From contig JANRIL010000020.1 of assembly GCA_033764955.1 (NCBI GenBank), positions 1 through 64,000 on the forward strand: a stretch of 64,000 nt of DNA, written 5' to 3'. The DNA comes from Cyanobacteriota bacterium (lineage in GTDB: Bacteria; Cyanobacteriota; Cyanobacteriia; Thermostichales; Thermostichaceae). Position numbers and translations under genes: made by a program. Positions 1 to 13,002 of the stretch are shown piece by piece (positions within the stretch are counted from its first letter, which is position 1; each line of letters opens with the position of its first letter). The notes under the pieces were generated by a model. That model ran no database searches and had not been told where the DNA came from. It saw nothing but the letters and a program-made list of their open reading frames with translations.

Positions 1-36
1 GTGCTCAACGCCTTACGGCATCAAAGGTAGAGGCAC
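1..36 (-). CRISPR. Leader-proximal CRISPR repeat GTGCCTCTACCTTTGATGCCGTAAGGCGTTGAGCAC (36 nt); array presumably continues left of the window
   Basis: 36-nt unit with GTG...CAC ends and a GATGCC-GTAA-GGCGTT hairpin, typical of cyanobacterial I-B/Myxan repeats; 250 bp downstream of cas2. Only one full copy is visible. Confidence 0.85.
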
Positions 37-288
37 GGCGACCTCTGAAACGCTTGCCACACAAACCCTGAGGAGCAGTTCGACAAGTATATCTGAAATA
101 TCCCTCCTAAAACTAACTGAAGACAATCAAACCATTCCAAATAACTTAGCTCAAAACTAAGCCCAGAAGGGCATTCCACCTTTTGCAGGCACCCCCAATC
201 CATCCAAAACATCTGAAGCGCCCAACCAATAACAGTTTTAGAGATAACATCCCTCTCCAAGGGTCTTACAGCCAGGGATCCCTGTTTT
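37..288 (-). promoter_or_regulatory. CRISPR leader
   Basis: Non-coding, relatively AT-rich stretch between the cas2 stop and the first repeat, ending ...GCAAGCGTTTCAGAGGTCGCC directly before the repeat. Confidence 0.7.
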
Positions 289-582
289 TCAGAAGATTTG
301 ATAGCTGCCCTGCTGCTCCGGCCAGCTTTCAGGCCGATTAGAGGCGATCACCCGCTCTACGCAACGGTTGCAGATGCCCGTAATCAAAAGGCTATCCTCG
401 GCGTTAAGGATCTTTTCTAACTCCCAACGCAGTTTCTCTCGCTCTCGCAACGTCAACCAACTGCGAAATATTGAATACTGGATCCGTTCTCCATAGCTTT
501 CCAAGAGCTTGTAAGCTTTGCGCCAGCGCTTGGGACAGCGAATGTCGTAGCAAATCAAGTAGCAAACCTTGTGCTCAGCCAT
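289..582 (-). CDS. cas2: CRISPR-associated endonuclease Cas2
   Basis: 97 aa; YLICYDI and RIQYSIF motifs; directly after cas1. Confidence 0.95.
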   Translation of the reverse strand: MAEHKVCYLICYDIRCPKRWRKAYKLLESYGERIQYSIFRSWLTLREREKLRWELEKILNAEDSLLITGICNRCVERVIASNRPESWPEQQGSYQIF

Positions 583-585
583 CCT

Positions 586-2277
586 TCACCTCACCACCAA
601 CTGAGCAAAAAGTCCCGCTTCACCCATCCACTCTTTTTCCAACAGACGCACCTCCAGTTCCAGCAAACGGCGATAGGTGAGGGAATATCCGGTGACTGGA
701 TGCTTCCATTTCTCCTGTTTACGTTGTTCGTAGATGGCAATGAATTTTTTGCGCCCCCCATCACTCAGCCACACCTGCTCCCCGCGAATTGTGAAATCAG
801 CTTGGGGATCCCATTGCCCACGATTGACGGAGGCCACAATGGGCATATCCACCAACGGCACCCGAAAAATCTCCATCAGATCCAACGCCAAGGGCGCAGC
901 TTGGGATCGGGGCTGATGATAAAAGCCCAGAGCCGGTTCTAGCCCCACCGTCAAAATGGCGTTCATCACATCCTTGAGCAGCAACGCATAGCCAAACCCC
1001 AGCAGGGCATTAAACCGATCCTTCGGAGGCCGCCGATTTCGTCCGGCAAAGTGCATCTCTGTTGGCACAGATTCCGTCAACGCTTGGGGCAACGCGCCAA
1101 AATAGAGCGCCGCCAAATTGCCTTCCAGCCCCAACAAACTCGCCAACGAATCGGCCTTGCTCACCTGCTTGAGCACCCGCTTCATCTGCTCGATGGCTTG
1201 CTCCAGCTCTGGCGGACGCAGGGATCCCGCCCCAGCACGCATCAAAAATTTGCGCTGACTTTGCCCGCGACAGGCTACCAGTTTTTGCGCCAAGCTCAGA
1301 CACATCTCCGGCTGAGTGAGGGCTTGATATTGCCGGATGCGGCGCTGAATGCTGCCCCCACGGGGATCCACACTGCCCACGTAGCGCCCACCGCCGGAGA
1401 CAAAATGGATCCCGATCTGTTCTTCGGCACACAGATGAATGGCTTGGGTCGAGATTTGCGAGAAGCTATGCAGCACCACTTGCCCCGTCTGTTGCACCGC
1501 AACAAACTCTTCGGCTTGGTCTTTGTGGGTGATCTTGAGCCGCGATCCACTTCGACCCACTCGCATTCCCGGCTCTAGGATATGCACACATTGCCGCTCG
1601 TCATCCTCAGGAAATAGGCGAACGGGGTGCCACTCTTGGTCATGGGCGAGCCGTGCTTCTTCCGGCAGACACACCGGAGCCAATGAACATCGGGCACAGA
1701 GACGTTCATTGTCAGTCACCGGAGGCCGTAGTGGAGATTGACGCAGGAGTCTAGCTAGGTGAATCGCCTCTCGCACTTCCGATCGTCTCGCGTCATCGAG
1801 GGGCACAGACACCAACACATTGTCAGCGTGGTAGCGGATTCGCCCCTCTGGAATCGGGATCCCTAGAGCCATTTCCATCAGATAGGCATAAGCCAAGATT
1901 TGTAGGCGGTCACTTTCCCAGGCTTGGGGATGATTGTCGGGATCCCGTGCGGCGCGACCCCGTTTGTGCTCGTAGGGAATCGTCTGTCCATCGCGGGTAC
2001 GCAGGGCATCCACCCGCCCGCGCAAGCCCAATTCCGCACTTTCCAGGAATAAATCTTCCCATTCTTCCCCTTCTTTTTTTTCCAGTTCGATGTGTAATCT
2101 TCTCCCGGCAAATACCGCTGCATCTTGGGTATAGAGTTCTTCGACTTCTTCGAGATAAAATAAGCGGGGACAATAGGCTAAAGCGTGTAAAGCAGAGACA
2201 CGAATGGGATCCAGATCCGTTTGAACTAAGGGATCTGTAAGCATTGTCGGCATGGTCGCGTAAGCGTTGCGTGGCAT
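586..2277 (-). CDS. cas1: Cas4-Cas1 fusion (type I-MYXAN)
   Basis: N-terminal Cas4 (YCPR, GRVD, EHKRG, CxxCxxxxxC) fused to Cas1 (LLGLEG...YF, RNRRPPKDRFNALL, GFYH, LDLMEIFR); start uncertain (ATG 2277 follows GGAG). Confidence 0.95.
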   Translation of the reverse strand: MPRNAYATMPTMLTDPLVQTDLDPIRVSALHALAYCPRLFYLEEVEELYTQDAAVFAGRRLHIELEKKEGEEWEDLFLESAELGLRGRVDALRTRDGQTIPYEHKRGRAARDPDNHPQAWESDRLQILAYAYLMEMALGIPIPEGRIRYHADNVLVSVPLDDARRSEVREAIHLARLLRQSPLRPPVTDNERLCARCSLAPVCLPEEARLAHDQEWHPVRLFPEDDERQCVHILEPGMRVGRSGSRLKITHKDQAEEFVAVQQTGQVVLHSFSQISTQAIHLCAEEQIGIHFVSGGGRYVGSVDPRGGSIQRRIRQYQALTQPEMCLSLAQKLVACRGQSQRKFLMRAGAGSLRPPELEQAIEQMKRVLKQVSKADSLASLLGLEGNLAALYFGALPQALTESVPTEMHFAGRNRRPPKDRFNALLGFGYALLLKDVMNAILTVGLEPALGFYHQPRSQAAPLALDLMEIFRVPLVDMPIVASVNRGQWDPQADFTIRGEQVWLSDGGRKKFIAIYEQRKQEKWKHPVTGYSLTYRRLLELEVRLLEKEWMGEAGLFAQLVVR

Positions 2278-2313
2278 GATCAATCAACTCCAAATGGTGA
2301 GGAATGAAAGAAC

Positions 2314-2333
2314 ACGCCTAACGGCATCAAAGG
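2314..2333 (-). repeat. Solitary degenerate CRISPR repeat core
   Basis: ACGCCTAACGGCATCAAAGG (+) matches repeat positions 8-27 at 19/20; the only mismatch is in the hairpin loop. Confidence 0.85.
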
Positions 2334-2389
2334 ATATATTTCTTGAACAGTAAAGACTCAATGGTAGATGAGGGAAGCAATCTGTTTTA

Positions 2390-2749
2390 TCAGATTTTTC
2401 GCTTGAAGGGAATATACTCGACCACATTTTCCCACTCTTTAAGGTCTGAAACTTGGGCAATCAGCTCTAGATCCATGACAAACTGCCCAATTGTTCCTCC
2501 TAGTTGATGACCAAAAATTAGTCCAGAGAAAGGTTTGCCCTCTTGCTGCCATTCTTCTGCCAGAGCACGAAAGCGAATATCTTGAGTAAATAGAAGCCTA
2601 TTGAGTTGTTTTGCCCGCTCCAAGAGTTGATCATCGGGGAGCTGATCACTGTTGTCTTCAATAGCTGTCATGACATCTATTCCTCTTCGGCGAAGCTGAT
2701 CAGTAATAGATTGAGGGATATGAACATCCATATACAAAGAAACTGACAC
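2390..2749 (-). CDS. DUF5615 PIN-like toxin (VapC45-type)
   Basis: LYMDVHIP, DDQLLERA, LFTQDIRF motifs; GTG start overlaps the TAG of the upstream DUF433 gene. Confidence 0.85.
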   Translation of the reverse strand: MSVSLYMDVHIPQSITDQLRRRGIDVMTAIEDNSDQLPDDQLLERAKQLNRLLFTQDIRFRALAEEWQQEGKPFSGLIFGHQLGGTIGQFVMDLELIAQVSDLKEWENVVEYIPFKRKI

Positions 2750-3066
2750 TAGAAAACTCCTCTTGTTTTCATCCTGAGATAGAAAGGTGATTGAGGAATT
2801 TGGACTAATTCTTTCTGGACTCGTTGCCATTCATCCTGAATCTCTTGATCAATATCAGCTTGATGATCGAAGTAGTAAGCCATAGCAGCATGGGCTTCTG
2901 CCAAAGTGAGATAGGGATGTTGGCGACACATTTCCTCCACTGACCAACCATAGGCAAGGTAATCCATTACGATCTGGGCTATCCTGATTCGTGGATGGCT
3001 TGCTAGGCTAGGTGAGTGGTCATCATTTTTCTGGATGTGAGGATAATTGAATTGAGAGATTTTCAT
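2749..3066 (-). CDS. DUF433 antitoxin (VapB45-type)
   Basis: RIRIAQIV...GWSVEEMCRQHPYLTLAEAHAAMAYY DUF433 signature; coupled to the PIN gene. Confidence 0.85.
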   Translation of the reverse strand: MKISQFNYPHIQKNDDHSPSLASHPRIRIAQIVMDYLAYGWSVEEMCRQHPYLTLAEAHAAMAYYFDHQADIDQEIQDEWQRVQKELVQIPQSPFYLRMKTRGVF

Positions 3067-3113
3067 GGTTTAAGCTCTTGAACCAGTAGATTATTTAAGG
3101 ATAGCCTAGAAGT

Positions 3114-3731
3114 CTAAAATTCAGGTTCTGCGAAAAAGTCAGCTAGATCCAAAGTGAAGCCTGGAATGACATCTCCTCCATCCAAGAGATCCCCCGGTCG
3201 CTTGAACTGATCCGGATGAGGTTGGTGATAAACCAAAACATACTGTTCATCGGGATGAATAATCCACACTAGACGGGATCCATTTTCAAAATACTCAACT
3301 ATCTTTTCGTGAATTTCCTCAACAGTATTGCCCGGAGAGAGGATTTCGACCGCAAGATCTGGGGATCCCTCGATATAGCCTGTGGGGATCCCGCCTAAGG
3401 ATTTGATTCGCTCTTTCGAGAAAAAGGAACAGTCAGGGGATCGACGATTACCAGATATCATTTTGAATGAGGTATCGGAATCAAAGACAAATCCCATTTT
3501 TCGCTCACGAGCATAAGCAGTTAAGAAAAAGCTGATTAAAGTAACGTAGTATCCATGTCTTGCCCCAGCCGCACCCATAACAATCAGTTCTCCATTCACA
3601 AGTTCATAACGATTACCGTCATCAGGGAGAGCCATAAACTCTGCATCTGTCCAGATTTTTTGGGTGGGTTCTGCCAGAGAGATTAGCAGGGATCCCTCTT
3701 TTGATTCCATTTTTGCTTGGGTGCCAGCCAT
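3114..3731 (-). CDS. Uma2 (DUF820) family PD-(D/E)XK endonuclease
   Basis: RYELVNGEL, RSPDCSF, PDLAVEILSP, EYFENGSRLVWIIHP; start moved to ATG 3731 behind a GAGGA RBS. Confidence 0.9.
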   Translation of the reverse strand: MAGTQAKMESKEGSLLISLAEPTQKIWTDAEFMALPDDGNRYELVNGELIVMGAAGARHGYYVTLISFFLTAYARERKMGFVFDSDTSFKMISGNRRSPDCSFFSKERIKSLGGIPTGYIEGSPDLAVEILSPGNTVEEIHEKIVEYFENGSRLVWIIHPDEQYVLVYHQPHPDQFKRPGDLLDGGDVIPGFTLDLADFFAEPEF

Positions 3732-3775
3732 AGTTATGTCCTCAACTTCTTTGCCTTTCACTGTCAATCTGTTTT
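3689..3775. repeat. 87-bp direct repeat, copy A (copy B at 4604-4690)
   Basis: Ungapped manual alignment gives 75/87 identity; covers the cas5 stop region, RBS and first Uma2 codons; both copies start at GGGATCCC. Confidence 0.9.
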
Positions 3776-3900
3776 CAATCTTTTTCTTTTTTCCTTGCCT
3801 AAGGAAGATAAGAAGGATAGGGGTGAGGTTCTCTATAGTACATAACAAAGCCATAAGAAAAACTTGTACACGGACATTCCAGATAAAAGATATGACTCAT
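3775..3900 (-). pseudogene. cas5: Internally deleted relic of a second cas5
   Basis: Translates as MSHIFYLECPCTSFSYGFVMYYREPHPYPSYLP*ARKKEKD*; intact cas5 begins MQLYIDCPCTSFPRSFARDYKETYQYP and has a K-rich end; same AAAACAGATTG at the stop. Confidence 0.8.
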
Positions 3901-4241
3901 ATTTCTGCATCGAGTAATTTTTCTAGAGATGGAATTAACAAGGGGATATCAACTTGAATAGTCTGCCAGAGAATATCTAGGTTGACAGAAAAATATGCAT
4001 GAACTAATCTATTCCGCATTGCAATAATTTGTGGCCAAGGAATTTCTGGATGTTGAGCTTGGCGATCAGGGGAAATACTGGATACCGCTTCGCCAATGCT
4101 TTCAATCAGTTTTACAAGGGCTAACTGCAAGAGTTCATTTTTATCTAAATCCTCACGAATGCTATCTCTTGTAAATTCTAGAGCTTTTCTGCTGGCATCG
4201 ATCATGTGTAGTATGCGGGTGCGATCATCAATGGCAGACAT
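3897..4241 (-). CDS. HEPN (DUF86, HepT-like) RNase toxin
   Basis: MRNRLVHAY = RX4HXY motif; overlaps the MNT gene. Confidence 0.9.
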   Translation of the reverse strand: MSAIDDRTRILHMIDASRKALEFTRDSIREDLDKNELLQLALVKLIESIGEAVSSISPDRQAQHPEIPWPQIIAMRNRLVHAYFSVNLDILWQTIQVDIPLLIPSLEKLLDAEI

Positions 4242-4542
4242 ATTGCACCACTGCCGAATCTAAAACCTTTTGTCGAAAGTAAGGACTCAGATCATTAGCA
4301 GTTCTGAGGTCTACTTTCCACTGAAGTAATTCACTTAATTCTAGTTCCATCCCTGCTAGGGAGATGAGTCCCGGTATATGATCCGGGTCAAATTCCACCA
4401 GAAAGTCTATGTCGCTTTCAGTGGTGAAGTCTGATCGCAAAACCGACCCAAATACGGATAGTTTATTAATATGATGTCGTTGACAGAATTCAGTGATTTG
4501 AGGCTGAAACTTTTTGAGATCGATGGATGTTGTGGTACTCAT
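4228..4542 (-). CDS. Minimal nucleotidyltransferase antitoxin (MntA-like)
   Basis: FGSVLRSDFTTESDIDFLVEF = GSX10DXD; AGGAGG RBS before ATG 4542. Confidence 0.9.
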   Translation of the reverse strand: MSTTTSIDLKKFQPQITEFCQRHHINKLSVFGSVLRSDFTTESDIDFLVEFDPDHIPGLISLAGMELELSELLQWKVDLRTANDLSPYFRQKVLDSAVVQYVCH

Positions 4543-4583
4543 ATAACCTCCTTTTTTTGGTTGCGATTCTTGAGTCACTAATT

Positions 4584-4646
4584 TTAGGTAAGACTTAGCT
4601 TTCGGGATCCCTCTTTTGATTCCATTTCTTCTTGGGTGCTAGTCAT
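4584..4646 (-). pseudogene. 20-codon stub of a Uma2 gene 5' end
   Basis: MTSTQEEMESKEGS vs MAGTQAKMESKEGS of the intact Uma2; homology ends at GGGATCCC 4604-4611. Confidence 0.75.
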
Positions 4647-4689
4647 AGTTATGTCCTCAATTCTTGTTCTTTTCGCTGCCAATCTGTTT

Positions 4690-5376
4690 TTAGGGCTTGT
4701 CCTTTTGTTTTTTCTTGTCTTTGTCTTTTGCCTTTCCCAAAAGTGGTTGAATCCGATCTGCTTTTGGGATCCTAACATAACAATCATCTTGAAGCTGATT
4801 GCTCCAAGAAAATCTTTGGAAAGTGCCCTGTCCAGTATCTCGATCAATCCAAATTGGCAGACCAATTAAGCCTCGATTATCCTTGATCAGCCATCGGATG
4901 TTGCCATCAGATTCTCGATATTGCCGAACACCATTGATCATTGCCCAAGATTCACCAAGGCTTGGTCCACCAAAACGGGTGATTTGATTGGGCGTAGAAA
5001 GGGCGATTGTTAATCGATCAGTGAGTTTCACAGTTGCGACCTCATCCTCAGAGTTAATCTGTACTGCTACTTGGAGATCTGTCAAAAGCTCATGATGATT
5101 AGGTTTTGAGAACTTACTGGTAGGATAAGTACCCATATGAGTTTTGCTGAACTTATGATGACGTTGCTTTCGCACAATTCGTGAAATGGGCGGATCCTCC
5201 CCAATAATGCCAATCGCTAACTTCACCCCGCGATGGACTTCCATATCCACCTCCCCTACAAGAGACAGCAACAGCCCGTAAACCGTAGAAGGCGGGGGAT
5301 ACTGGTAGGTTTCCTTATAATCTCGTGCGAAGCTGCGAGGAAAACTGGTGCAAGGACAGTCAATATAAAGCTGCAT
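4690..5376 (-). CDS. cas5: Cas5 (Cmx5/DevS)
   Basis: ETYQYPPPSTVYGLLLSLVGE and SLGESW motifs; TAATG overlap with cas7. Confidence 0.92.
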   Translation of the reverse strand: MQLYIDCPCTSFPRSFARDYKETYQYPPPSTVYGLLLSLVGEVDMEVHRGVKLAIGIIGEDPPISRIVRKQRHHKFSKTHMGTYPTSKFSKPNHHELLTDLQVAVQINSEDEVATVKLTDRLTIALSTPNQITRFGGPSLGESWAMINGVRQYRESDGNIRWLIKDNRGLIGLPIWIDRDTGQGTFQRFSWSNQLQDDCYVRIPKADRIQPLLGKAKDKDKKKQKDKP

Positions 5377-6236
5377 TAGGCATTTACCTCCTTTTTGAGC
5401 AATGACTTAGCGGCAGTGATCGCTTCTTTAACCCCACGGTTAACTTGCACCCCTAATACCGCTAACTTTTGGCCATAGGGTGTATCAGCAATTTCCCCGG
5501 CCACTATCAATTCGCTGGCTGCTACATCACCGACTTCGACCAATCGGAGCAGTTTTGGACAGCCAACGGCATCACCCATCCGTTTGAAACAATCCATAAT
5601 CCAGGGACTTGGATCCTCCGTTACGCGAATGACGATTGACTCTGGGTGAAAGTCATATAGAAAACGAGCGTGGTTTCCCCCTACATGTCGTACAGCCGTG
5701 ATTGCATCCAACGCAAGAGCAGCCCGTGCAGGATCTTTCAAGCTGTCAGGAGTCAGTGCAACTGTGTATTGGTAAGCTGTGTAGTGAACTTCAGTGCTAT
5801 GGATAGAAGTTTTACCCTTTTCGCCACCTTTTGAACCAAAGGCAATATCTCCCCAGTAGGGATCCAGGCTGATGGCACGGCTGATTTCTAGTGCACCCCG
5901 TCGTTTAGTTGTTGCATCCTCATTGTCTTTACCTTTTTTAGCATCCATGTAGCCAAACAAATCATCGTCAATATAGGTGGTTGCGTTAAAGACCTCAGCT
6001 TTGAAGCTGTATTTATCAGTGTTTGGATCAAAGGTACGATTGGTTTCTGCCTCATTATTGTTCTGGAAATACTCTCGTAATCCCCAGCGAATGGCTTCCG
6101 CACTGATGGTGGTGTACTGGTCGTGGCCACGAGTGATTTTTTGCAGTGTGGACAAGGTGCTGCCATCTCCTTCGCCTCGGTTATTGGCAGCAACAGCAGT
6201 AGCTGTAACGATGGTGGCGAACAAATGCTTAGACAT
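5376..6236 (-). CDS. cas7: Cas7 (DevR family)
   Basis: AANNRGEGDG, SAEAIRWGLR, YIDDDLFGYM, GGNHARFLYDF motifs. Confidence 0.92.
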   Translation of the reverse strand: MSKHLFATIVTATAVAANNRGEGDGSTLSTLQKITRGHDQYTTISAEAIRWGLREYFQNNNEAETNRTFDPNTDKYSFKAEVFNATTYIDDDLFGYMDAKKGKDNEDATTKRRGALEISRAISLDPYWGDIAFGSKGGEKGKTSIHSTEVHYTAYQYTVALTPDSLKDPARAALALDAITAVRHVGGNHARFLYDFHPESIVIRVTEDPSPWIMDCFKRMGDAVGCPKLLRLVEVGDVAASELIVAGEIADTPYGQKLAVLGVQVNRGVKEAITAAKSLLKKEVNA

Positions 6237-6271
6237 GATTAATTCTCCTAGAAACCATGAACTTGGAAAAA

Positions 6272-6694
6272 CTATACACTCATTGAAAACATCTCAGCTT
6301 CTTCTGGATCCGATTCAACAACAGATTCGATCTGCACTTCTGCCCCATCCAGGGCATCCCCTTTCTTGCTGGTGTAGGTGGCGATTGCTAACAGAGTCAG
6401 ATCCCTTGCCTGCCGCCAGTTCGCTTCCCGATGAACCCAGTGATAAATTTGTGCACCTGCTGCTCTCCCTGCTTTGCTACGAAACTGGCTCAAGAAATCA
6501 ACGAGCGCGGTGGCAAATTCCTGTTGAGTGCTGGGGCGTTGCATCCGATAAATCACTTTATCCGTGACTTGTCCATAATCCAGCTTGCGCCCCTGCTTTT
6601 GAGCCTGTTTGAATTGTCCGTACAGGTAGTTGCTAAAAGCTCCCTGCACCGCATCAAATAGCACTTGTTCTTCAGCATTAAGATATTCAGTCAT
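6272..6694 (-). CDS. cas11: Probable Cas11 small subunit translated internally from cas8
   Basis: In-frame ATG (MTEYLNAEEQ...) preceded by AAAGGA 9 nt upstream; 140-aa helical C-terminal domain. Confidence 0.65.
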   Translation of the reverse strand: MTEYLNAEEQVLFDAVQGAFSNYLYGQFKQAQKQGRKLDYGQVTDKVIYRMQRPSTQQEFATALVDFLSQFRSKAGRAAGAQIYHWVHREANWRQARDLTLLAIATYTSKKGDALDGAEVQIESVVESDPEEAEMFSMSV

Positions 6695-7777
6695 TTTTAC
6701 CAATCCTTTGCGTTCATAAACACCATTCTGTTTGCGAAATCCGAAAAATCCCTGATACCAGGGTTTTTCAGCTACCAAGTTGTCACAGATCCAGGGCAGT
6801 ATTTTTGAGATTGCCAACCAGGTTTCGCCTTTGCCGGTTTGCTTTACCTGGGCTGGAAAGAGTTGCCGAGCAATGTCGTACAGCTCTAGCACGGCATCAT
6901 TCACCTGCACTCGATAAACTGCTTGTTTGAGAAATGACTGATTCGCATCCCAAACTTGCTTGCCAAGCTGGTAGACCTCGCAATAATCGACTCGAAATTG
7001 TTGGGCATCTTCGAGTGTTTTCTCCTGCAACAAGAAGTGCAGCGCGGATTCGCCCGCCCCACTGCTGCGGAAGTCTCGATAGGTACGACCCGACAGATTT
7101 TGACGGCTTCTGACCCAATGCGTTAGATGGGTGACATTGGGAATGACAACCGCTGATCGTCCTGCGAGCTTGCCACCGACAGACTGAGCCGGAAGCTTGT
7201 AATACCCGCAGGCGATCGGAAGAAACAACAGCGCCAAAAATCCCTCTGGTGACTCCTGATAGGCACCGTTGACAAAGCACTCCACTAATCCGGGTAAATG
7301 ATGCCCTTTTAGCGAAATCTCTTTCTTGAATGTACCTTTGCTGTTGAATGCTTCCTTGATGTCATCAGTGTAGTAGCAGTTCAACAATGGGCGTACATCA
7401 ATTCTGATTTCCGGTTGTCCTTCATCAATTGTGAAACCTCTAGTAATAGGTGTATCTAAACTCCGCTGTTGGCTGTGTTGCAGAAATGTCGATAACACAC
7501 CCTGAGTAAAGGTGTAATGCCCTTGATCATCGAGCTTCAGGGCTGGAACCTTGAGATAGCCATCGGCAGTGATTTGATAAGTCTGGTCGAGCAGCCATTT
7601 AACCACTGCAAAATCGCTGCCTTCCCATGCTAATTTCACAGCTTCGTCTGTCACCTCCCAGGTCAACGGTGCATCCTTATGGGGCAGTACAGAGAGCGCC
7701 AATGCTAACCCGGCAATGCCTGCGCGGTGGGGTAGCAAAGTATTTGGGTCAAAAATCGATAGTGTAAATTCTGTCAA
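6272..7777 (-). CDS. cas8: Cas8b (Cmx8) large subunit
   Basis: TLLPHRAGIAGL N-terminal motif; lies between cas3 and cas7; TTG start at 7777 behind AGGAGG. Confidence 0.88.
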   Translation of the reverse strand: MTEFTLSIFDPNTLLPHRAGIAGLALALSVLPHKDAPLTWEVTDEAVKLAWEGSDFAVVKWLLDQTYQITADGYLKVPALKLDDQGHYTFTQGVLSTFLQHSQQRSLDTPITRGFTIDEGQPEIRIDVRPLLNCYYTDDIKEAFNSKGTFKKEISLKGHHLPGLVECFVNGAYQESPEGFLALLFLPIACGYYKLPAQSVGGKLAGRSAVVIPNVTHLTHWVRSRQNLSGRTYRDFRSSGAGESALHFLLQEKTLEDAQQFRVDYCEVYQLGKQVWDANQSFLKQAVYRVQVNDAVLELYDIARQLFPAQVKQTGKGETWLAISKILPWICDNLVAEKPWYQGFFGFRKQNGVYERKGLVKMTEYLNAEEQVLFDAVQGAFSNYLYGQFKQAQKQGRKLDYGQVTDKVIYRMQRPSTQQEFATALVDFLSQFRSKAGRAAGAQIYHWVHREANWRQARDLTLLAIATYTSKKGDALDGAEVQIESVVESDPEEAEMFSMSV

Positions 7778-7781
7778 AATC

Positions 7782-10058
7782 TCACCTCCTTTTGAGTGCA
7801 AAAGCACCTAGCTCCGGTGAATAGCCCCACTGGTCGGCAGGTGCGATCAAGTATCCTTTCTTGTGTCGCTGCCAGCCTTTGATATCCTTAGTCGGCAAAG
7901 GCACCGTGTAGCGGGGTAAGTCACTGGATTTGAGCATTGAAATCCTTGCTTGATCCTGCTCCAACAACGCTGTCACCGTATAACCTGCTTCCCGTAGAGC
8001 GGCTGGGTAGGTGCGCCACTTGCCATCAAGCAAGACGAAGTGATCCTTCGGTTGGCTTTGCACATGCAGTTGCTCTAACCAGTTAGCCAGTTGTGACTGA
8101 TTGACCTCATCGGAGAACGATCGCACCAACGCCAAGCCAGTATCTAGCTCGTCCTGGCTGTAAGGGAAGCCAATCATCTTCGGATCTTCGGGGTAAAACA
8201 TCGCGTCTAAAGCATGACCACAATAACGACGATTTAGCCTTCCCAAACGCTGAATTAATCCTGCTGGATCAGCAATCTGTGTTACTAACAGGGTTGCCGA
8301 CAAGTCTAGCGACATTTCCGCTACTTGGGTTGCTACTGCTAAAACAGGTGGTGCCTCTGGCTTAAACCCGTCCACGACTGCTCGATGATGCTTCACGCGA
8401 TCGCCGTACCGGAACCGACTGTGATAAAGCAATGCATTCAAGCCGATGCTTTTGGCATGTTCGTAGACTGCGATCGCTGTATTCACCTGGTTGCAGACCC
8501 AAAGCACTTTGCCGCCATTGGTGAGTTCTTGCTGCACCCGTTCCCAGTCGGGAGCTTGCCTTTCATGGAAGCGGTAGCGCGGCTTTTCCTCCAAATCTTG
8601 AGGGCCGTGAATAATCACGACAGGTTCACCGACTGCTGAGCGAATCGCCTCGACTTGCGCGGGTAAAAATGAGGCAGACATCAGTAATACAGGTGCTTTA
8701 ACCACCTTGAGAAATCGCAGCAACGCCCCAAACAGCGCATCGTCATAGCAGTGAACCTCATCAAACACAAAGGCAGCATTAGCGATCGCTGGGAAGCAAT
8801 ACATCGGGCGGCGATTGCATTGCAGTAACCCCAGCACTGTATCTACCGTGCAGATGCTCACTTTTGCCCCCCAAGCCTTGAAGGAATCAAGCTTCTGATC
8901 GGTTTCATTGACAGTTTCATCCCCGTTATCAACCTCTTCGCCAGTCCTCGCCAGTTCCAGATCAACCTCTGAGCGGGAGTGCAGCAGCACTGACTCTACT
9001 TCATCCTGCACATAGTCCAAAAAACCTTCGGTACTGGTGCCCGTTGTGGGATAGCAAAAGAACAGTTTGCGACCGATCGCGTGCCTTTGTGCCCAGTTGT
9101 AAGCTCCAAGCGTTTTGCCCGTGCCACATCCGGCCCGCGCCATCGTCACCCGCGTAGACTTTTCCTTCAGGTCAATTTGGAAGAGTCGCAGCGGATGATT
9201 GCCACGTCGGGCATCAATCACTCGTTGGAGATCAGCCTCAGTAAGGGTACTAGGTTCTTCTTCTGTCCCGATCAGTTGCTCTTTAATCCATTCGTGGATG
9301 TTGACAGAAACTTGTGCTGAGGCAGAACCGATCGAATCTCCCGCAATCAGTAGCGCTTTCATCACTGCTAGGAGTGTGAGGTCTGGCTCCCAATCAGCAA
9401 AGGCATCTAAAACGGCTTGGCGCTTGTCTCGTTTGATCTCACCAACTTCCCAGCGTTCAGAAATCGCCCGTGGTAGCTGAATTTGATTGGGTAGTTCCAG
9501 CGTTCTCACACCGTAGCGAATCAACTTGCGGAAATAAGGATGACGAATATACCAGTACAAGCCGGTATCACCCGTGCCCTCTCGCACCTCACCAAGTTCG
9601 CTTGTATCTTTGCCCTGCTTGCCACCCAATTTGAGGTGATGTCCCCCTGCGGCTGCCAGCGCCACCATAAAATCAGCATCCGGGCACTGCTGAAGCCACT
9701 CTCGAAACTCCCATGCTAGAAGCATTGAGGCGATTTCGTGACGGATAAGCTGTGGCTGCTCTAGAGGATTGCGCTGATGTCGCACCACCATTTGAAAGTG
9801 GTCATTGGCTTTGCCCCAGTCGTGTAGATAGGCTGCCAGCCGTGCCGTTGCCTTCAGCGTGCTGAATTCACAGGTCAACCCAAATTGCTGGATCAGGCGA
9901 TCGCCTAAACAATCTACTAAGCTAGTGACTGACTTAACAACGGCAGCGGTATGACCAACAAGATGGTAAGCCCCTTGCCAGTCTACTGCTCCTGGAGTCG
10001 AGGACTTGGCTAATAGAATATCGGGTTCCAGTTTCGGCGGTGTCATTTTAGGCGGCAT
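7782..10058 (-). CDS. cas3: Cas3 HD nuclease/helicase
   Basis: LHDWGKAN HD domain, GCGTGKT, DEVH, MSAS, QRLGRLNR; ATG 10058 behind AGGAGG. Confidence 0.95.
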   Translation of the reverse strand: MPPKMTPPKLEPDILLAKSSTPGAVDWQGAYHLVGHTAAVVKSVTSLVDCLGDRLIQQFGLTCEFSTLKATARLAAYLHDWGKANDHFQMVVRHQRNPLEQPQLIRHEIASMLLAWEFREWLQQCPDADFMVALAAAGGHHLKLGGKQGKDTSELGEVREGTGDTGLYWYIRHPYFRKLIRYGVRTLELPNQIQLPRAISERWEVGEIKRDKRQAVLDAFADWEPDLTLLAVMKALLIAGDSIGSASAQVSVNIHEWIKEQLIGTEEEPSTLTEADLQRVIDARRGNHPLRLFQIDLKEKSTRVTMARAGCGTGKTLGAYNWAQRHAIGRKLFFCYPTTGTSTEGFLDYVQDEVESVLLHSRSEVDLELARTGEEVDNGDETVNETDQKLDSFKAWGAKVSICTVDTVLGLLQCNRRPMYCFPAIANAAFVFDEVHCYDDALFGALLRFLKVVKAPVLLMSASFLPAQVEAIRSAVGEPVVIIHGPQDLEEKPRYRFHERQAPDWERVQQELTNGGKVLWVCNQVNTAIAVYEHAKSIGLNALLYHSRFRYGDRVKHHRAVVDGFKPEAPPVLAVATQVAEMSLDLSATLLVTQIADPAGLIQRLGRLNRRYCGHALDAMFYPEDPKMIGFPYSQDELDTGLALVRSFSDEVNQSQLANWLEQLHVQSQPKDHFVLLDGKWRTYPAALREAGYTVTALLEQDQARISMLKSSDLPRYTVPLPTKDIKGWQRHKKGYLIAPADQWGYSPELGAFALKRR

Positions 10059-10704
10059 TAGTATCCTCCTTTGATGGATAAAACCAGCCACAGCCAAAGT
10101 GTTGCCGTCCACCTAAACCATGCCACTGCAACCTCAGCGAATCCTCATGACTTAATCCCTCGACTACGACACCAAAGCCCAGAATCTTCTTGTCTTTGAT
10201 CTGCACAGTCCGCCTTGCTAAGTTCCCATTTGGATCACTCGGAATAAATGCCTGTCCCTTAATCTCCAGACGCTCTAGCCCTTTTTGACAAGATTGCAAA
10301 AAGTAGCGAGGCACCTCAGCATGATCGATTGCATCTAACTTAAATGTCACGAGCCTCGCAGCTAGGGTATTACTGGCTTCTGGCAAGGTAATTCTCGGTT
10401 GTACGAGCCTAATGAGATGCCCGCGAATATCAAAAACCTTATTTTGCAAGAAACGATACCAAACCTCTATTTGATCAGACGGACAACGGACTCGAAAACG
10501 AGAACCTTGATTCAGATAAATCATCCCATCCCGATCCGGAATGCCAGGAATACTGCATAGTCTCACCTCCACAGGCAAATCTTTGGGTGTAAAGTCAGAG
10601 TCTGAGTCTTGTAGTAACTTCTTGACTGCTGAATAGAGAGCATAGCCATGATCAGCAGGTAATGTCTTACCTCTTAGTGAAAACTGAATCTCCAGAAAGT
10701 TCAT
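10048..10704 (-). CDS. cas6: Cas6 (Cmx6) crRNA-processing endoribonuclease
   Basis: LPADHGYALYSA and C-terminal GLGGRQHFGCGWF G-loop. Confidence 0.95.
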   Translation of the reverse strand: MNFLEIQFSLRGKTLPADHGYALYSAVKKLLQDSDSDFTPKDLPVEVRLCSIPGIPDRDGMIYLNQGSRFRVRCPSDQIEVWYRFLQNKVFDIRGHLIRLVQPRITLPEASNTLAARLVTFKLDAIDHAEVPRYFLQSCQKGLERLEIKGQAFIPSDPNGNLARRTVQIKDKKILGFGVVVEGLSHEDSLRLQWHGLGGRQHFGCGWFYPSKEDTNAA

Positions 10705-10708
10705 ACTC

Positions 10709-11683
10709 TTAGCTCCTTGAGTAACACATGTTCATTTCAACGATTTCTGCCTTGATCATCTCCATCAGTTCCGGCGGATCCCTGACCACCGCCCCCTTGC
10801 CATAGCCCAACACCCAGCGCTTTACATCATTCATTCCCTGCACCGTCATGCGTAAAACCAGCGATCCATCCGGTTCCTCCTCAATCACCTGTGTGGGGTG
10901 CCAGCGCCGCTCCCGGATAAACGGTGCCGTCTGGGCATCAAACCAAATTCCTACCTGCTGAGGAATCCCGCCCACCTCATGCTGGAAAATCATCGCCAAA
11001 TGATCTTTGGGATCAAAGGTGGGATCCACTTCAAAAGTCTCACGCAGGGTTTTGAGAGAAAGAATCCTATCCACCCGAAACCACCTCACCTCCTGTCGTT
11101 TGTGACACCAGCCAATGACATAGGGGTTTGTGCCTCGGTAGATGTGCAAGAGATAGGGATCCAACTCCCGTTCCGATACGTCATCTCTCCGACTGGCAGT
11201 GCGATAGCGCATCCACACCCGTTTTTTCTCTCGGCAGGCATCCTCCAACTGCTGCCAGATCTCCAAATCCAGATGGGTCTCCGCCCCAGAACGGAAGACA
11301 AAACGGTCATCAGCAACCTGTTGTAAATCCAGCCACTCTTGCTCCGGGATCCGTTCTGCCAGACGAGCAATCGCCGAGCGTAACTGAGGGGCATAGGCAG
11401 ATCCGGCGTAAGCCTCCAGCATCCTGGATCCCAACGTCAAGGCAAACAACTCCCCCTTCGTCAGAGGAATAGAGGGCAAGCGCCATTCCGGATCGGTATA
11501 GTGAAACCCTCTTTTCCGGTTCACCACAATGGGGGCTTGAAAGCGGTCTTTCAAAAAACAAATATCGGCTCTCACCGTCCGCTCACTCACCTCCAAAGCC
11601 TCAGCCAACAAAGGTGCTGTCTGTCGGTGCCCAGCGCGGAGCAACATATCCAGTTTCAAAACCCGTTCCAACTGACGGAGCAT
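10709..11683 (-). CDS. wHTH-WYL-WCX transcriptional regulator
   Basis: LAEALEVSERTVRADI HTH, YVIGWCHKRQEVRWFRVDRI WYL, WVLGYG WCX; start probably ATG 11683. Confidence 0.92.
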   Translation of the reverse strand: MLRQLERVLKLDMLLRAGHRQTAPLLAEALEVSERTVRADICFLKDRFQAPIVVNRKRGFHYTDPEWRLPSIPLTKGELFALTLGSRMLEAYAGSAYAPQLRSAIARLAERIPEQEWLDLQQVADDRFVFRSGAETHLDLEIWQQLEDACREKKRVWMRYRTASRRDDVSERELDPYLLHIYRGTNPYVIGWCHKRQEVRWFRVDRILSLKTLRETFEVDPTFDPKDHLAMIFQHEVGGIPQQVGIWFDAQTAPFIRERRWHPTQVIEEEPDGSLVLRMTVQGMNDVKRWVLGYGKGAVVRDPPELMEMIKAEIVEMNMCYSRS

Positions 11684-11917
11684 GGCCGACTCGGATGACG
11701 ATGAGAGCATTCTAGGCAACCCACCCGGCAAAAACACTTCCGACTTGTCAACCCTTGACCAAGCATTAAAACTTCTTTCTCAGAGGTTGCTGCCCATCAG
11801 GAGTTCAAGGGTTTCGAGACTAAGCAGCAAGCCATCAAGTCTATTGAAAAATCCTTCAGCCACTGCGTCGATCTGATCCGTTCAGAAGCAGTTGCATCCC
11901 AGGTGCTCGACCACCGC

Positions 11918-12661
11918 TCAGCTTAGTTGTTCGACGTCATCCCGCCGATAAAAGATGCGTCCATTCTCCTGAACGCGGGCGGTGATTTCAGCCTTCTCCA
12001 GGCGCAGGCGTGCTTGCTGTTGAGAACATCCCAAAATTTGGCTGGCTACCGACAGCGGGATCCACTGTCTAGCCAGTCGGCTGAGCATCACCGACTCGCA
12101 GGTTTCCGCAATATCCCCCAATAGGCACTGGGCTAGCTGCCAACAAGCTAAGGTATCGGCTTCCGCCCGATGGGATCCCGACACTGTCAGGTGAAAATGC
12201 TCCACCAAGGCGGGCAGAGCACGGGAGGGCAAGTCCGGCAGGAGGATTCTGGCTAATTGCAGGGTACAGAACTGTTGAACGGCAGAACGACGAAATGTTA
12301 TCCCCATCTGCTGAGCTTCCGCCTGCAAAAAACCGTAATCAAAGGGCAGATTATGGGCAGTGAGGATCCCTTGATTGAGGAGTGGCCAATAATCAGGCCA
12401 TACCGCATGAGCAAGAGGAGCTTGATCCACCATCGCTTGAGTAATGCCAGTCAAGCGAGTAATTGGTTGGGGAACCACAGCGGGTGGATTCACCAGGGTG
12501 GTTTGTTGATGCAAAATCCCTTTCTCTAGGCTCGCCTGCAAGAGAGAAACCTCAATCACACGGTTGCCGTTCCCCAGATATCCAGTAGTTTCCACATCCA
12601 CCACTGTTAGAGTGGCTTGGCTGAGCCGTCGATAATAGGCCAAGAGGTCGTGGGAACGCAA
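11918..12661 (-). CDS. DEDDh 3'-5' exonuclease (DnaQ-like) with C-terminal HTH-like segment
   Basis: VVDVETTG, AHNLPFD, HRAEAD motifs. Confidence 0.9.
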   Translation of the reverse strand: MRSHDLLAYYRRLSQATLTVVDVETTGYLGNGNRVIEVSLLQASLEKGILHQQTTLVNPPAVVPQPITRLTGITQAMVDQAPLAHAVWPDYWPLLNQGILTAHNLPFDYGFLQAEAQQMGITFRRSAVQQFCTLQLARILLPDLPSRALPALVEHFHLTVSGSHRAEADTLACWQLAQCLLGDIAETCESVMLSRLARQWIPLSVASQILGCSQQQARLRLEKAEITARVQENGRIFYRRDDVEQLS

Positions 12662-12726
12662 AATATTCGGGTCAGAACCAAGACCTTTTCACGCTAAACC
12701 TTTTCTGCTGAGCAGACAAGCTGAAA

Positions 12727-13002
12727 TCACCGCTGAGCAACCGTCGGCAATCCCCAACACATCTCTAGCCACTGCACCTGCTCCCGAGGATTGGGAGAAA
12801 AGCGTAACTCTACCTGATAAATGCAGGCTCGATCAATGGATCCCTTAGAACCCAGCCGAATCAGAGCACTCAGATTGTCCTCTGCTAGCCAACTTACTGA
12901 AACCCCCAAACTGATCAAACTACGGGCGGCTTGTTCCACACCAGCTTTTGGCACCTGGATAGCCCTCCGTTCGTAGCAAACATAAGGAGTCATGAGCCGC
13001 AC
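12727..13002 (-). CDS. Hypothetical protein
   Basis: 91-aa ORF filling the gap, co-directional with the exonuclease. Confidence 0.5.
   Translation of the reverse strand: MRLMTPYVCYERRAIQVPKAGVEQAARSLISLGVSVSWLAEDNLSALIRLGSKGSIDRACIYQVELRFSPNPREQVQWLEMCWGLPTVAQR

Follow-up and report, generated by a model that had tools for sequence, protein, structure and literature searches.

Repeat-like sequences that lie outside CRISPR arrays have been surveyed in cas loci. In its accessible text, the survey reports enrichment near cas6 (type I-B), cas3, cas8 and cas10d, and suggests that solitary repeat units (SRUs), whose role it leaves unknown, may be mini-arrays in which the second repeat has decayed (Shmakov et al. 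2023, PMC10120712). The CreA/CreR systems, as far as the available parts of the reports go, need two pseudo-repeats (8-nt 5' handle, 3' handle) and a spacer partly complementary to a promoter beside a protospacer-adjacent motif (PMC8501985, PMC9458426, 10.1101/2023.03.10.532045). Racrs are presented, in the portion of the source at hand, as phage-encoded small-RNA inhibitors (PMC10651486). Here we describe a solitary hairpin derived from a CRISPR repeat in a cyanobacterium of the family Thermostichaceae, located in a 64,000-nt stretch of DNA (assembly GCA_033764955.1, contig JANRIL010000020.1, positions 1 to 64,000; hereafter the window). It lies in a 112-nt gap of a type I-MYXAN CRISPR-Cas locus, between toxin cargo and the adaptation genes cas4-cas1 and cas2. 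The best explanation of its sequence is that the type I-MYXAN repeat gave rise long ago to a hairpin-only derivative, which selection has maintained. Judged by comparison among loci, it belongs to a conserved family of such derivatives in cyanobacterial I-MYXAN operons that had not been characterised before. We consider it an evenly balanced proposition that the element is a selected recognition hairpin for Cas6 (Cmx6) within the cas operon RNA, at the boundary of cargo and adaptation genes.

The hairpin is comparable to SRUs in that its match to the cognate repeat exceeds the 16-bp threshold (≥16 bp), it is intergenic in a cas locus and outside the array, and it is conserved in relatives; it differs from them in keeping the hairpin side only, at one fixed operon boundary. 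With CreA/CreR it shares a degenerate repeat in a cas locus beside toxin-antitoxin (TA) genes and Cas6-type processing signals, but the window holds one repeat-like unit instead of two, and no spacer of the CreA/CreR kind was found in it. Like Racrs, it stands alone, derives from a repeat and is expected, as RNA, to engage Cas6 or other Cas proteins without guiding interference; unlike them, it is host-encoded, inside the cas operon and vertically conserved. A degenerate terminal array repeat would also be repeat-derived with a mutated 3' end; the element, however, has no adjoining array or spacer, lies upstream of cas4-cas1 and not in a trailer, and has its own loop type across clades. In synthetic operons, engineered Csy4/Cas6 cleavage sites insulate genes. 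There, as proposed here for the element, a Cas6 hairpin between cistrons cuts the polycistronic RNA, but these are synthetic devices, and a natural counterpart in a cas operon was not found in the literature searched.

The element and its immediate surroundings comprise the following features.

2314-2327, minus strand: solitary hairpin ATGCC-GTTA-GGCGT, a 5-bp stem with a U.G wobble and a tetraloop
2314-2333, minus strand: 20-nt repeat-like unit, 19/20 to the array repeat, corresponding to the 3'-handle side of a CRISPR RNA (crRNA)
2278-2313, minus strand: 36-nt leader from the hairpin to the cas4-cas1 ATG, occupying the place of the repeat handle, with the Shine-Dalgarno sequence GGAG at 2291-2288
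2357-2368, minus strand: weak repeat-like piece TCTACCATTGAG, 11/12 to the 5' part of the repeat, not conserved
2378-2388, minus strand: 11-nt junction repeat AAAACAGATTG, right after the DUF5615 stop codon
1-36, minus strand: first CRISPR repeat, 36 nt, at the contig end; the full repeat is present only here in the window

When the repeat 20-mer CCTTTGATGCCGTAAGGCGT was searched across the whole window with up to 3 mismatches, it matched twice, at 8-27 on the minus strand with 0 mismatches (the array repeat) and at 2314-2333 on the minus strand with 1 mismatch, and none of 100 shuffled windows used as control contained a match. The 19/20 match in array orientation, first pointed out in a sequence-only reading of this DNA, is thereby confirmed. 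Several other observations of that reading hold as well: the stem ATGCC/GGCGT is intact, with the sole change in the loop (GTAA to GTTA); the 3' handle is gone (TTGAGCAC in the array repeat, GTTCTTTC in the solitary copy); the hairpin stands 36 nt before the cas4-cas1 ATG (last base of the hairpin 2314, first base of the ATG 2277); and the gap has toxin cargo on one side and adaptation genes on the other. The start codon occupies 2277-2275 (not 2278), with an in-frame TTG at 2283. Folded alone, the solitary hairpin has an energy of -6.9 kcal/mol and the array repeat -11. The determinants of a Cas6 substrate are present, as the stem is that of the cognate repeat, the strand is that of all cas genes and cmx6 is in the locus; the loop differs.

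To evaluate conservation, cas4-cas1 homologues were taken from relatives, from a class-wide sample of 401 cyanobacterial genomes, from a species-representative collection and from metagenomes, yielding 73 non-redundant cyanobacterial I-MYXAN loci (protein identity of 60% or more and no less than 200 nt of sequence upstream). Locus counts are based on exact and one-mismatch patterns and are lower bounds. The exact core GATGCC-N4-GGCG has 22 sense matches upstream of cas4-cas1 in 21 of the 73 loci (105,937 nt scanned) and 0 on the antisense strand of the same sequence; about 0.1 matches are expected by chance. With up to 1 mismatch and within 400 nt upstream of cas4-cas1, the core is found in 25 loci in sense and 0 in antisense orientation. 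Near-match hairpins add L100, L102, L105, L041 and L126; those of L014 and L099 were picked up through a linked upstream motif, and in 3 loci the hairpin lies 1.5-2.6 kb upstream of cas4-cas1, behind cas5. Conservation in homologous loci had been set beforehand as the refuting test, and its outcome speaks for a function: the hairpin is found to be kept, sense-only and in the cas5-to-cas4-cas1 gap, in about 31 of the 73 loci altogether. The positives are spread over at least 6 clades and interleaved with negatives in a rough neighbour-joining tree drawn with no support values. No hairpin adjoining cas4-cas1 was found in 34 proteobacterial and other loci (40-60% identity, 127 kb scanned).

A scan blind to genes led to the same gap. 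After one array using this loop and one array-repeat variant were set aside, the pattern CCNNNGATGCCGYYAGGCG had 25 non-array matches in the 401 genomes, 21 of which are in the cas5-to-cas4-cas1 gap: 15 on the cas4-cas1 strand at most 450 nt upstream, 4 in the same operon 1.5-3.1 kb upstream of cas4-cas1, and 2 directly behind cas5 on short contigs. The other 4 lie behind secDF, inside an RNase III gene, in an orphan mini-array and in an unannotated context. The reversed pattern, used as control on the same genomes, gave 13 single matches, which are scattered.

Conservation within the element is uneven, as measured by mean pairwise identity in an alignment of 19 elements.

5' stem arm: 0.98
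3' stem arm: 0.91
Loop: about 0.7
ACCNNNG before the stem: 0.64
Flanks, both sides: 0.27-0.33

The conserved stretch runs from about ACCNNNG through GGCG. The final G of GGCG (G35) is invariant in 19/19 elements, and the base after it, which closes the stem in the window, is T in 13/19 and C in 6/19; thus, conservation stops at the expected Cas6 cut. RNA base pairing survives in four of the five variants of the stem (L041 U.G, L100 G.U, L102 U.G, L126 U-A). The handle is lost in nearly all solitary copies, a handle-like TGAAC being kept in L035 and L106 and TGAACAC in L102.

The solitary copies are also distinct from the arrays of their own loci. Among the 17 loci in which both loops are readable, the solitary loop equals the local array loop in 0. 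At loop position 3, 19 of 21 solitary copies have a pyrimidine, whereas 60 of 63 arrays have a purine, so that the loops of the arrays are GNRA-like. Since solitary and array loops always differ, the solitary copies are taken to be mutual orthologues that have not been refreshed by recombination with the array.

Other repeat-derived copies were observed. The extended match has three copies in the 3.8-Mb assembly of the window, namely the array repeat, the solitary copy and a degenerate orphan mini-array on contig C34. With 26 exact-core matches genome-wide, specificity comes only from this extended match, and further exact-core matches in the same genome (e.g., C14:12509, antisense inside an open reading frame) were treated as chance. 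The C34 mini-array (G000 contig C34:30020-30165; L002:1460-1600, minus strand) is far from cas genes and consists of a decayed repeat ending TTGAGCAG, then a spacer of 41 nt, then a 32/36 repeat. In its own genome this spacer matches nothing over more than 12 nt except 18/20 on C30 (E=5.2). In a non-cas context, G060 (L165:990-1100) has an orphan unit in which a spacer of 39 nt separates a full repeat from a hairpin-only one with a GTTA loop. Locus L035 carries a second solitary hairpin (L035:3348-3361) just upstream of a cas7-like open reading frame.

These data can be put together in a mechanism, each step of which is proposed. The cas operon RNA would be transcribed through the cas5-to-cas4-cas1 gap, and Cmx6 would bind the hairpin in this polycistronic RNA and cut after GGCG, between 2315 and 2314. 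The upstream cas5/cargo RNA would be left with a Cas6-capped 3' hairpin, and cas4-cas1-cas2 would be released as a separate RNA whose 36-nt leader could not be mistaken for a crRNA. In the window's clade, cutting or binding may also free the ribosome-binding site (RBS), which is predicted to pair with the hairpin 3' arm. Adaptation-gene expression would be affected by Cas6 action at the hairpin. The part of the repeat that is kept is the portion 5' of the predicted Cas6 cut (ACCNNNG, stem, loop, GGCG) and the part that is lost is the 8-nt handle; the loss fits selection against Cascade loading of the adaptation-mRNA leader. The sequence-only reading had suggested a Cas6 site by which the adaptation mRNA would be split off or regulated, and what speaks for it is comparative, namely conservation, strand and position.

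Extended to the whole family, the proposal becomes tentative, and we lean somewhat against it. In this form, I-MYXAN hairpin-only repeats would be built-in Cas6 cut sites that split the operon RNA into interference, cargo (Uma2/TA) and adaptation modules; Cas6 availability would set the stability or translation of the acquisition genes; the whole would be a natural counterpart of the synthetic Csy4 insulators; the distinct non-GNRA loop would tune the site apart from the array repeats; and a sister form, described below, would be a new crRNA-like small RNA.

The coordination of spacer acquisition, which is prone to autoimmunity, with interference is largely an open question. Known RNA-based control of CRISPR acts through crRNA-like guides that repress promoters. 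If the Cas6-site reading is true, a handle-stripped Cas6 hairpin in operon RNA would be a different, post-transcriptional layer in which the crRNA-processing enzyme decides the fate of the adaptation and cargo messages. Many culturable lineages of cyanobacteria carry the element, which is short and has sharp limits, and this makes the proposal directly testable. That this would be an undescribed layer, as the sequence-only reading held, fits the literature searched, although the general category of solitary repeat units in cas loci had been described before. Full-text literature searches found no paper on Cas6 cutting cas mRNAs or on repeat-like sites before adaptation genes. The text available of PMC10120712 does not contain "cas4" and no mention of the cas5-to-cas4-cas1 gap was found there; its supplementary tables may list such loci. 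The available parts of the CreR preprint and of a 2026 preprint on crlRNAs (crRNA-like RNAs) mention neither cyanobacteria nor this gap. A review, in its accessible portion, states that viral SRUs may act in an inhibitory way and that DevTRS autoregulation does not depend on Cas6.

The leader between hairpin and start codon was considered for its predicted structure. This 36-nt stretch is conserved only in the 4 closest loci. In the predicted fold of the window's clade, GGCGUG of the hairpin 3' arm is paired to CAUGCC around the start codon, and UUCC to GGAG. The predicted unpaired probability of the translation-initiation region (TIR; RBS and start codon) is 0.22, against 0.43 with the hairpin forced or removed, and TIR accessibility is as low as the native value in 3% of hairpin-segment shuffles. 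This opening trend is common to 12 of 16 loci, including the window's own clade, L012, L013 and L102, but is reversed in L101, L104 and L105. RBS unmasking is therefore offered as a clade-level lead only, from modelled folds.

A number of results weigh against the Cas6-site reading. A search of sequencing runs listed none from RNA that contains the locus. The short hairpin is absent from the predicted minimum-energy fold in 16/16 leaders, where forcing it costs 2.8-13.8 kcal/mol, and the TIR trend is reversed in L101, L104 and L105. The L014 stem variant ATGAC does not pair. No stem pair has changed on both sides (0 compensatory double changes in a nearly invariant stem), so sequence-specific DNA recognition is possible. 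About 42 of the 73 loci are without the element, which is therefore dispensable, and related loci are not independent of one another. The non-GNRA loop could mean altered or weaker recognition by Cas6. Type I systems usually have an 8-nt 5' crRNA handle. The cut was placed at the GGCG boundary on the assumption of this usual handle, which is general type I knowledge and not I-MYXAN data. Finally, the sister class resembles the end of a small-RNA gene, and mRNA partition may hence not be the ancestral role.

Three relatives within the window's clade (L034, L009 and L038) lack the solitary hairpin, and their array repeat has the stem ATTGCC, not ATGCC. Loss of the solitary site may accompany a changed Cas6 target, as far as the sequences of these relatives, which represent two lineages only, can indicate.

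The sister class comprises 12 distinct loci (L099, L108/L113, L159, L160, L161, L014, L119, L124, L127, L136, L138, L139) that carry a conserved 21-nt motif, TGAACCTTGA(A/C)AACTGAATAC, 32-44 nt (in two loci 64 nt) upstream of the hairpin. The order behind cas5 is motif, variable stretch, hairpin and T-run (e.g., L127:459-535, L160:4448-4530), and for most of the 12 loci the predicted minimum-energy fold includes the hairpin and T3-T6 comes after it. The class also holds a conserved TGAATAC ("seed"). The motif segment TTGAAAAC agrees with the repeat handle TTGAGCAC at 6/8 positions, and because of this resemblance the sister class looks like a crRNA-like small-RNA gene at the sequence level. 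It is closer to CreA/CreR in design than the window element, but without a detectable target: searches of the spacer-like part against 7-15 kb of operon sequence in 11 loci found none above shuffled controls. The window element falls in the other class, made up of hairpin-only copies located 24-65 nt ahead of the cas4-cas1 start; G039 holds both classes in one locus. By eye, the hairpin is enclosed by an outer helix in some sister-class copies, and the sequence of this helix varies between loci. A small hairpin inside the 21-nt motif is not claimed, its registers differing between loci (by eye). In L161 (G320), cas8 contains at about 1279-1295, about 2 kb upstream of the element, a second copy, identical over 17 nt, of TTGAAAAC together with the 9 nt that begin the spacer-like stretch, which is far beyond chance.

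The hairpin of the window could accordingly be the surviving terminal pseudo-repeat of a crRNA-like small-RNA gene (mini-array, CreR/CreA-type) that gives a Cas6-made 3' end, its 5' half having been lost or displaced by cargo. This explanation survives best among the alternatives and we nevertheless judge it unlikely. It gains from the 12 sister-class loci with the handle-like TTGAAAAC upstream of the same hairpin and a T-run after it, from the hairpin-only GTTA unit in the orphan mini-array of G060, from the coexistence of both classes in G039, and from the description, in the accessible text of PMC10120712, of mini-arrays beside TA cargo. The window itself gives it little to build on. The 21-nt motif has no match there within 3 mismatches, and the motif profile has no match at 2350-2375 among the 15 matches listed up to E=35. 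The sequence-only reading had also suggested the 3' end of a guide-like RNA linked to the toxin genes, and this finds no support in the window, which has no upstream repeat or handle at crRNA spacing. A search of 2389-2334 against cas and TA promoter regions gave no match of at least 10 nt besides the 11-nt junction repeat; within window positions 1-13000, the only matches of that length are copies of AAAACAGATTG and two 10-mers inside cas3 (1.2 expected by chance). Furthermore, the hairpin begins 8-19 nt past the cas5 stop codon in L039, L101, L104, L105, L035 and L166, leaving no room for an intergenic guide, and even the sister class is without a self-target above shuffled controls.

The weaker repeat-like piece TCTACCATTGAG noted upstream in the sequence-only reading does exist at 2368-2357 on the minus strand, with 11/12 to TCTACCTTTGA, but it has no counterpart in relatives, because the upstream sequence differs there, and its register is shifted by only 31 nt relative to the hairpin copy. 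It is best described as an unconfirmed remnant of the 5' part of the repeat. That it is a decayed copy of the upstream motif of other loci was rejected, since the motif profile does not match 2350-2375. A promoter reading of TTGAGT-17-TATATC, upstream of the hairpin, failed in a promoter scan. The window has ATTGAGTC 21 nt ahead of CCTTTG.

A second alternative, which we regard as quite unlikely, is that the hairpin works, with or without Cas6, as a weak intrinsic terminator or attenuator and so reduces read-through from the interference and cargo genes into cas4-cas1-cas2. A consensus scan does list 2327-2314 on the minus strand, with the tail GTTCTTTCAT, as terminator-like, and the sister class, with its T3-T6 runs and with the hairpin in the minimum-energy fold of most of its loci, points in the same direction. 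The scan has low specificity, however, with 23 terminator-like sites against 12.3 expected, and the stem is only 5 bp, at -6.9 kcal/mol. Conservation of the T-rich tail fails within the window's own clade (GTGCTCTCTC, GTGTTCGGTC) and also in L012, L013, L036, L041, L101 and L104, and termination leaves the match of the stem to the CRISPR repeat unexplained.

The near invariance of the stem, without double compensatory change, would also suit a site that acts as DNA, for Cas1-Cas2(-Cas4), another repeat-binding protein or as a cargo recombination hotspot. The cargo content of the gap fits this idea too, with Uma2 or TA genes in the window and 14 loci, the bracketing hairpins of G039 and short direct repeats bounding cassettes. 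Yet the conserved T.G is a mismatch in a DNA cruciform and a wobble pair in sense-strand RNA, the single-base stem variants are wobble-compatible only on the sense strand, and both of the repeat ends used in integration are missing. The orientation is strictly sense (22 vs 0), though shared descent alone could also yield that. We find a DNA-level site decidedly improbable. Least probable of all is a neutral, functionless, decaying remnant of an old repeat, the "only a decayed array remnant" that the sequence-only reading had held out and that conservation in about 31/73 loci makes very unlikely: degenerate ectopic repeats are common near active CRISPR systems in the accessible text of PMC10120712, the element is missing from 42/73 loci and its own genome has an orphan degenerate mini-array on another contig, but stem identity is 91-98% where Cas4-Cas1 is 63-87% identical to that of the window and flanks are at random level, strand and position are fixed, the copies are not refreshed from the array (0/17 shared loops), and divergent flanks argue against recent horizontal copies of one segment.

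The element is embedded in a complete type I-MYXAN CRISPR-Cas locus on the minus strand, window 1-11737, identified by domain and family profile matches. The type is backed by TIGR02807, TIGR03485/03486 and TIGR02585 together with Pfam Cas1, Cas4, Cas2 and Cas3 domains; TIGR02586 scores under its cutoff in the window and over it in relatives. The genes and other features, in order of transcription, are as follows.

10709-11737, minus strand: HTH-WYL-WCX regulator gene at the head of the locus (domain search)
10048-10704, minus strand: cas6/cmx6, predicted reader of the hairpin (PF09559 7.8e-63; TIGR02807 170.8 bits vs cutoff 98.85)
7782-10112, minus strand: cas3 (domain/family profiles)
6272-7807, minus strand: cas8/cmx1 (domain/family profiles)
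5376-6236, minus strand: cas7/devR (domain/family profiles)
4690-5376, minus strand: cas5/cmx5/devS, which directly precedes the hairpin in cargo-free relatives
4228-4578, minus strand: MNT, cargo (domain search)
3897-4241, minus strand: HepT, cargo (domain search)
3114-3854, minus strand: Uma2, cargo (domain search)
2749-3066, minus strand: DUF433, cargo (domain search)
2390-2830, minus strand: DUF5615/PIN-like, cargo (domain search)
586-2277, minus strand: cas4-cas1 fusion, 564 aa counted from the ATG at 2277 (domain search)
289-582, minus strand: cas2 (domain search)
37-288, minus strand: leader of the array, 252 nt

The CRISPR array is unassembled because the contig ends inside the first repeat. 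This repeat (1-36) scores 38.6 bits against Rfam CRISPR-DR33, whose gathering score is 39, and no Rfam family match was found at the solitary copy. Directly after the cas4-cas1 start codon, window 2254-2277 contains a 24-nt in-frame insertion (8 codons) that duplicates the ATGCC start context; it is missing from the closest relatives and from one metagenome contig.

The gap that holds the hairpin is variable in gene content. Cas5/Cmx5/DevS is directly upstream of the hairpin in 14 loci. Cargo lies before the hairpin in the window, L040, L013, L117 and L106 and after it in G340, G320, G240 and L119, and about 3 kb of cargo is enclosed between two hairpins in G039. Uma2 or TA genes occupy the cas5-to-cas4-cas1 gap in the window and 14 related loci, the recurrent cargo being Uma2 with PIN, ParE, RelB-like and DUF433 genes. 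Uma2 (PF05685) occurs in 1-3 copies per locus, often with TA pairs, in the gap of L013, L117, L040, L119, L159, L160, L161 and L162. Its recurrence suggests a lineage-specific accessory gene or a cargo hotspot; a gap that repeatedly lodges Uma2 nucleases and TA pairs bears on how accessory genes are wired to CRISPR loci. Uma2 is an accessory gene in cyanobacterial type III loci, according to the available portion of PMC11855584.

The junction repeat AAAACAGATTG has further minus-strand copies at 4690-4680, right after the cas5 stop codon, and at 3775-3765. All three copies are just past a stop codon or cassette boundary and they bound the cargo block, which is consistent with cargo having entered at the cas5 end through short-homology recombination. 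Direct repeats of 103 nt, 82% identical, lie on either side of the MNT/HepT cassette (3689-3791 and 4604-4706). The cassette is missing in metagenome contigs from three runs of one hot-spring study, which join 3745 to 4725 and so skip 979 nt (3746-4724), indicating related strains without the cassette; at this joint, the metagenome contigs carry 64 other letters.

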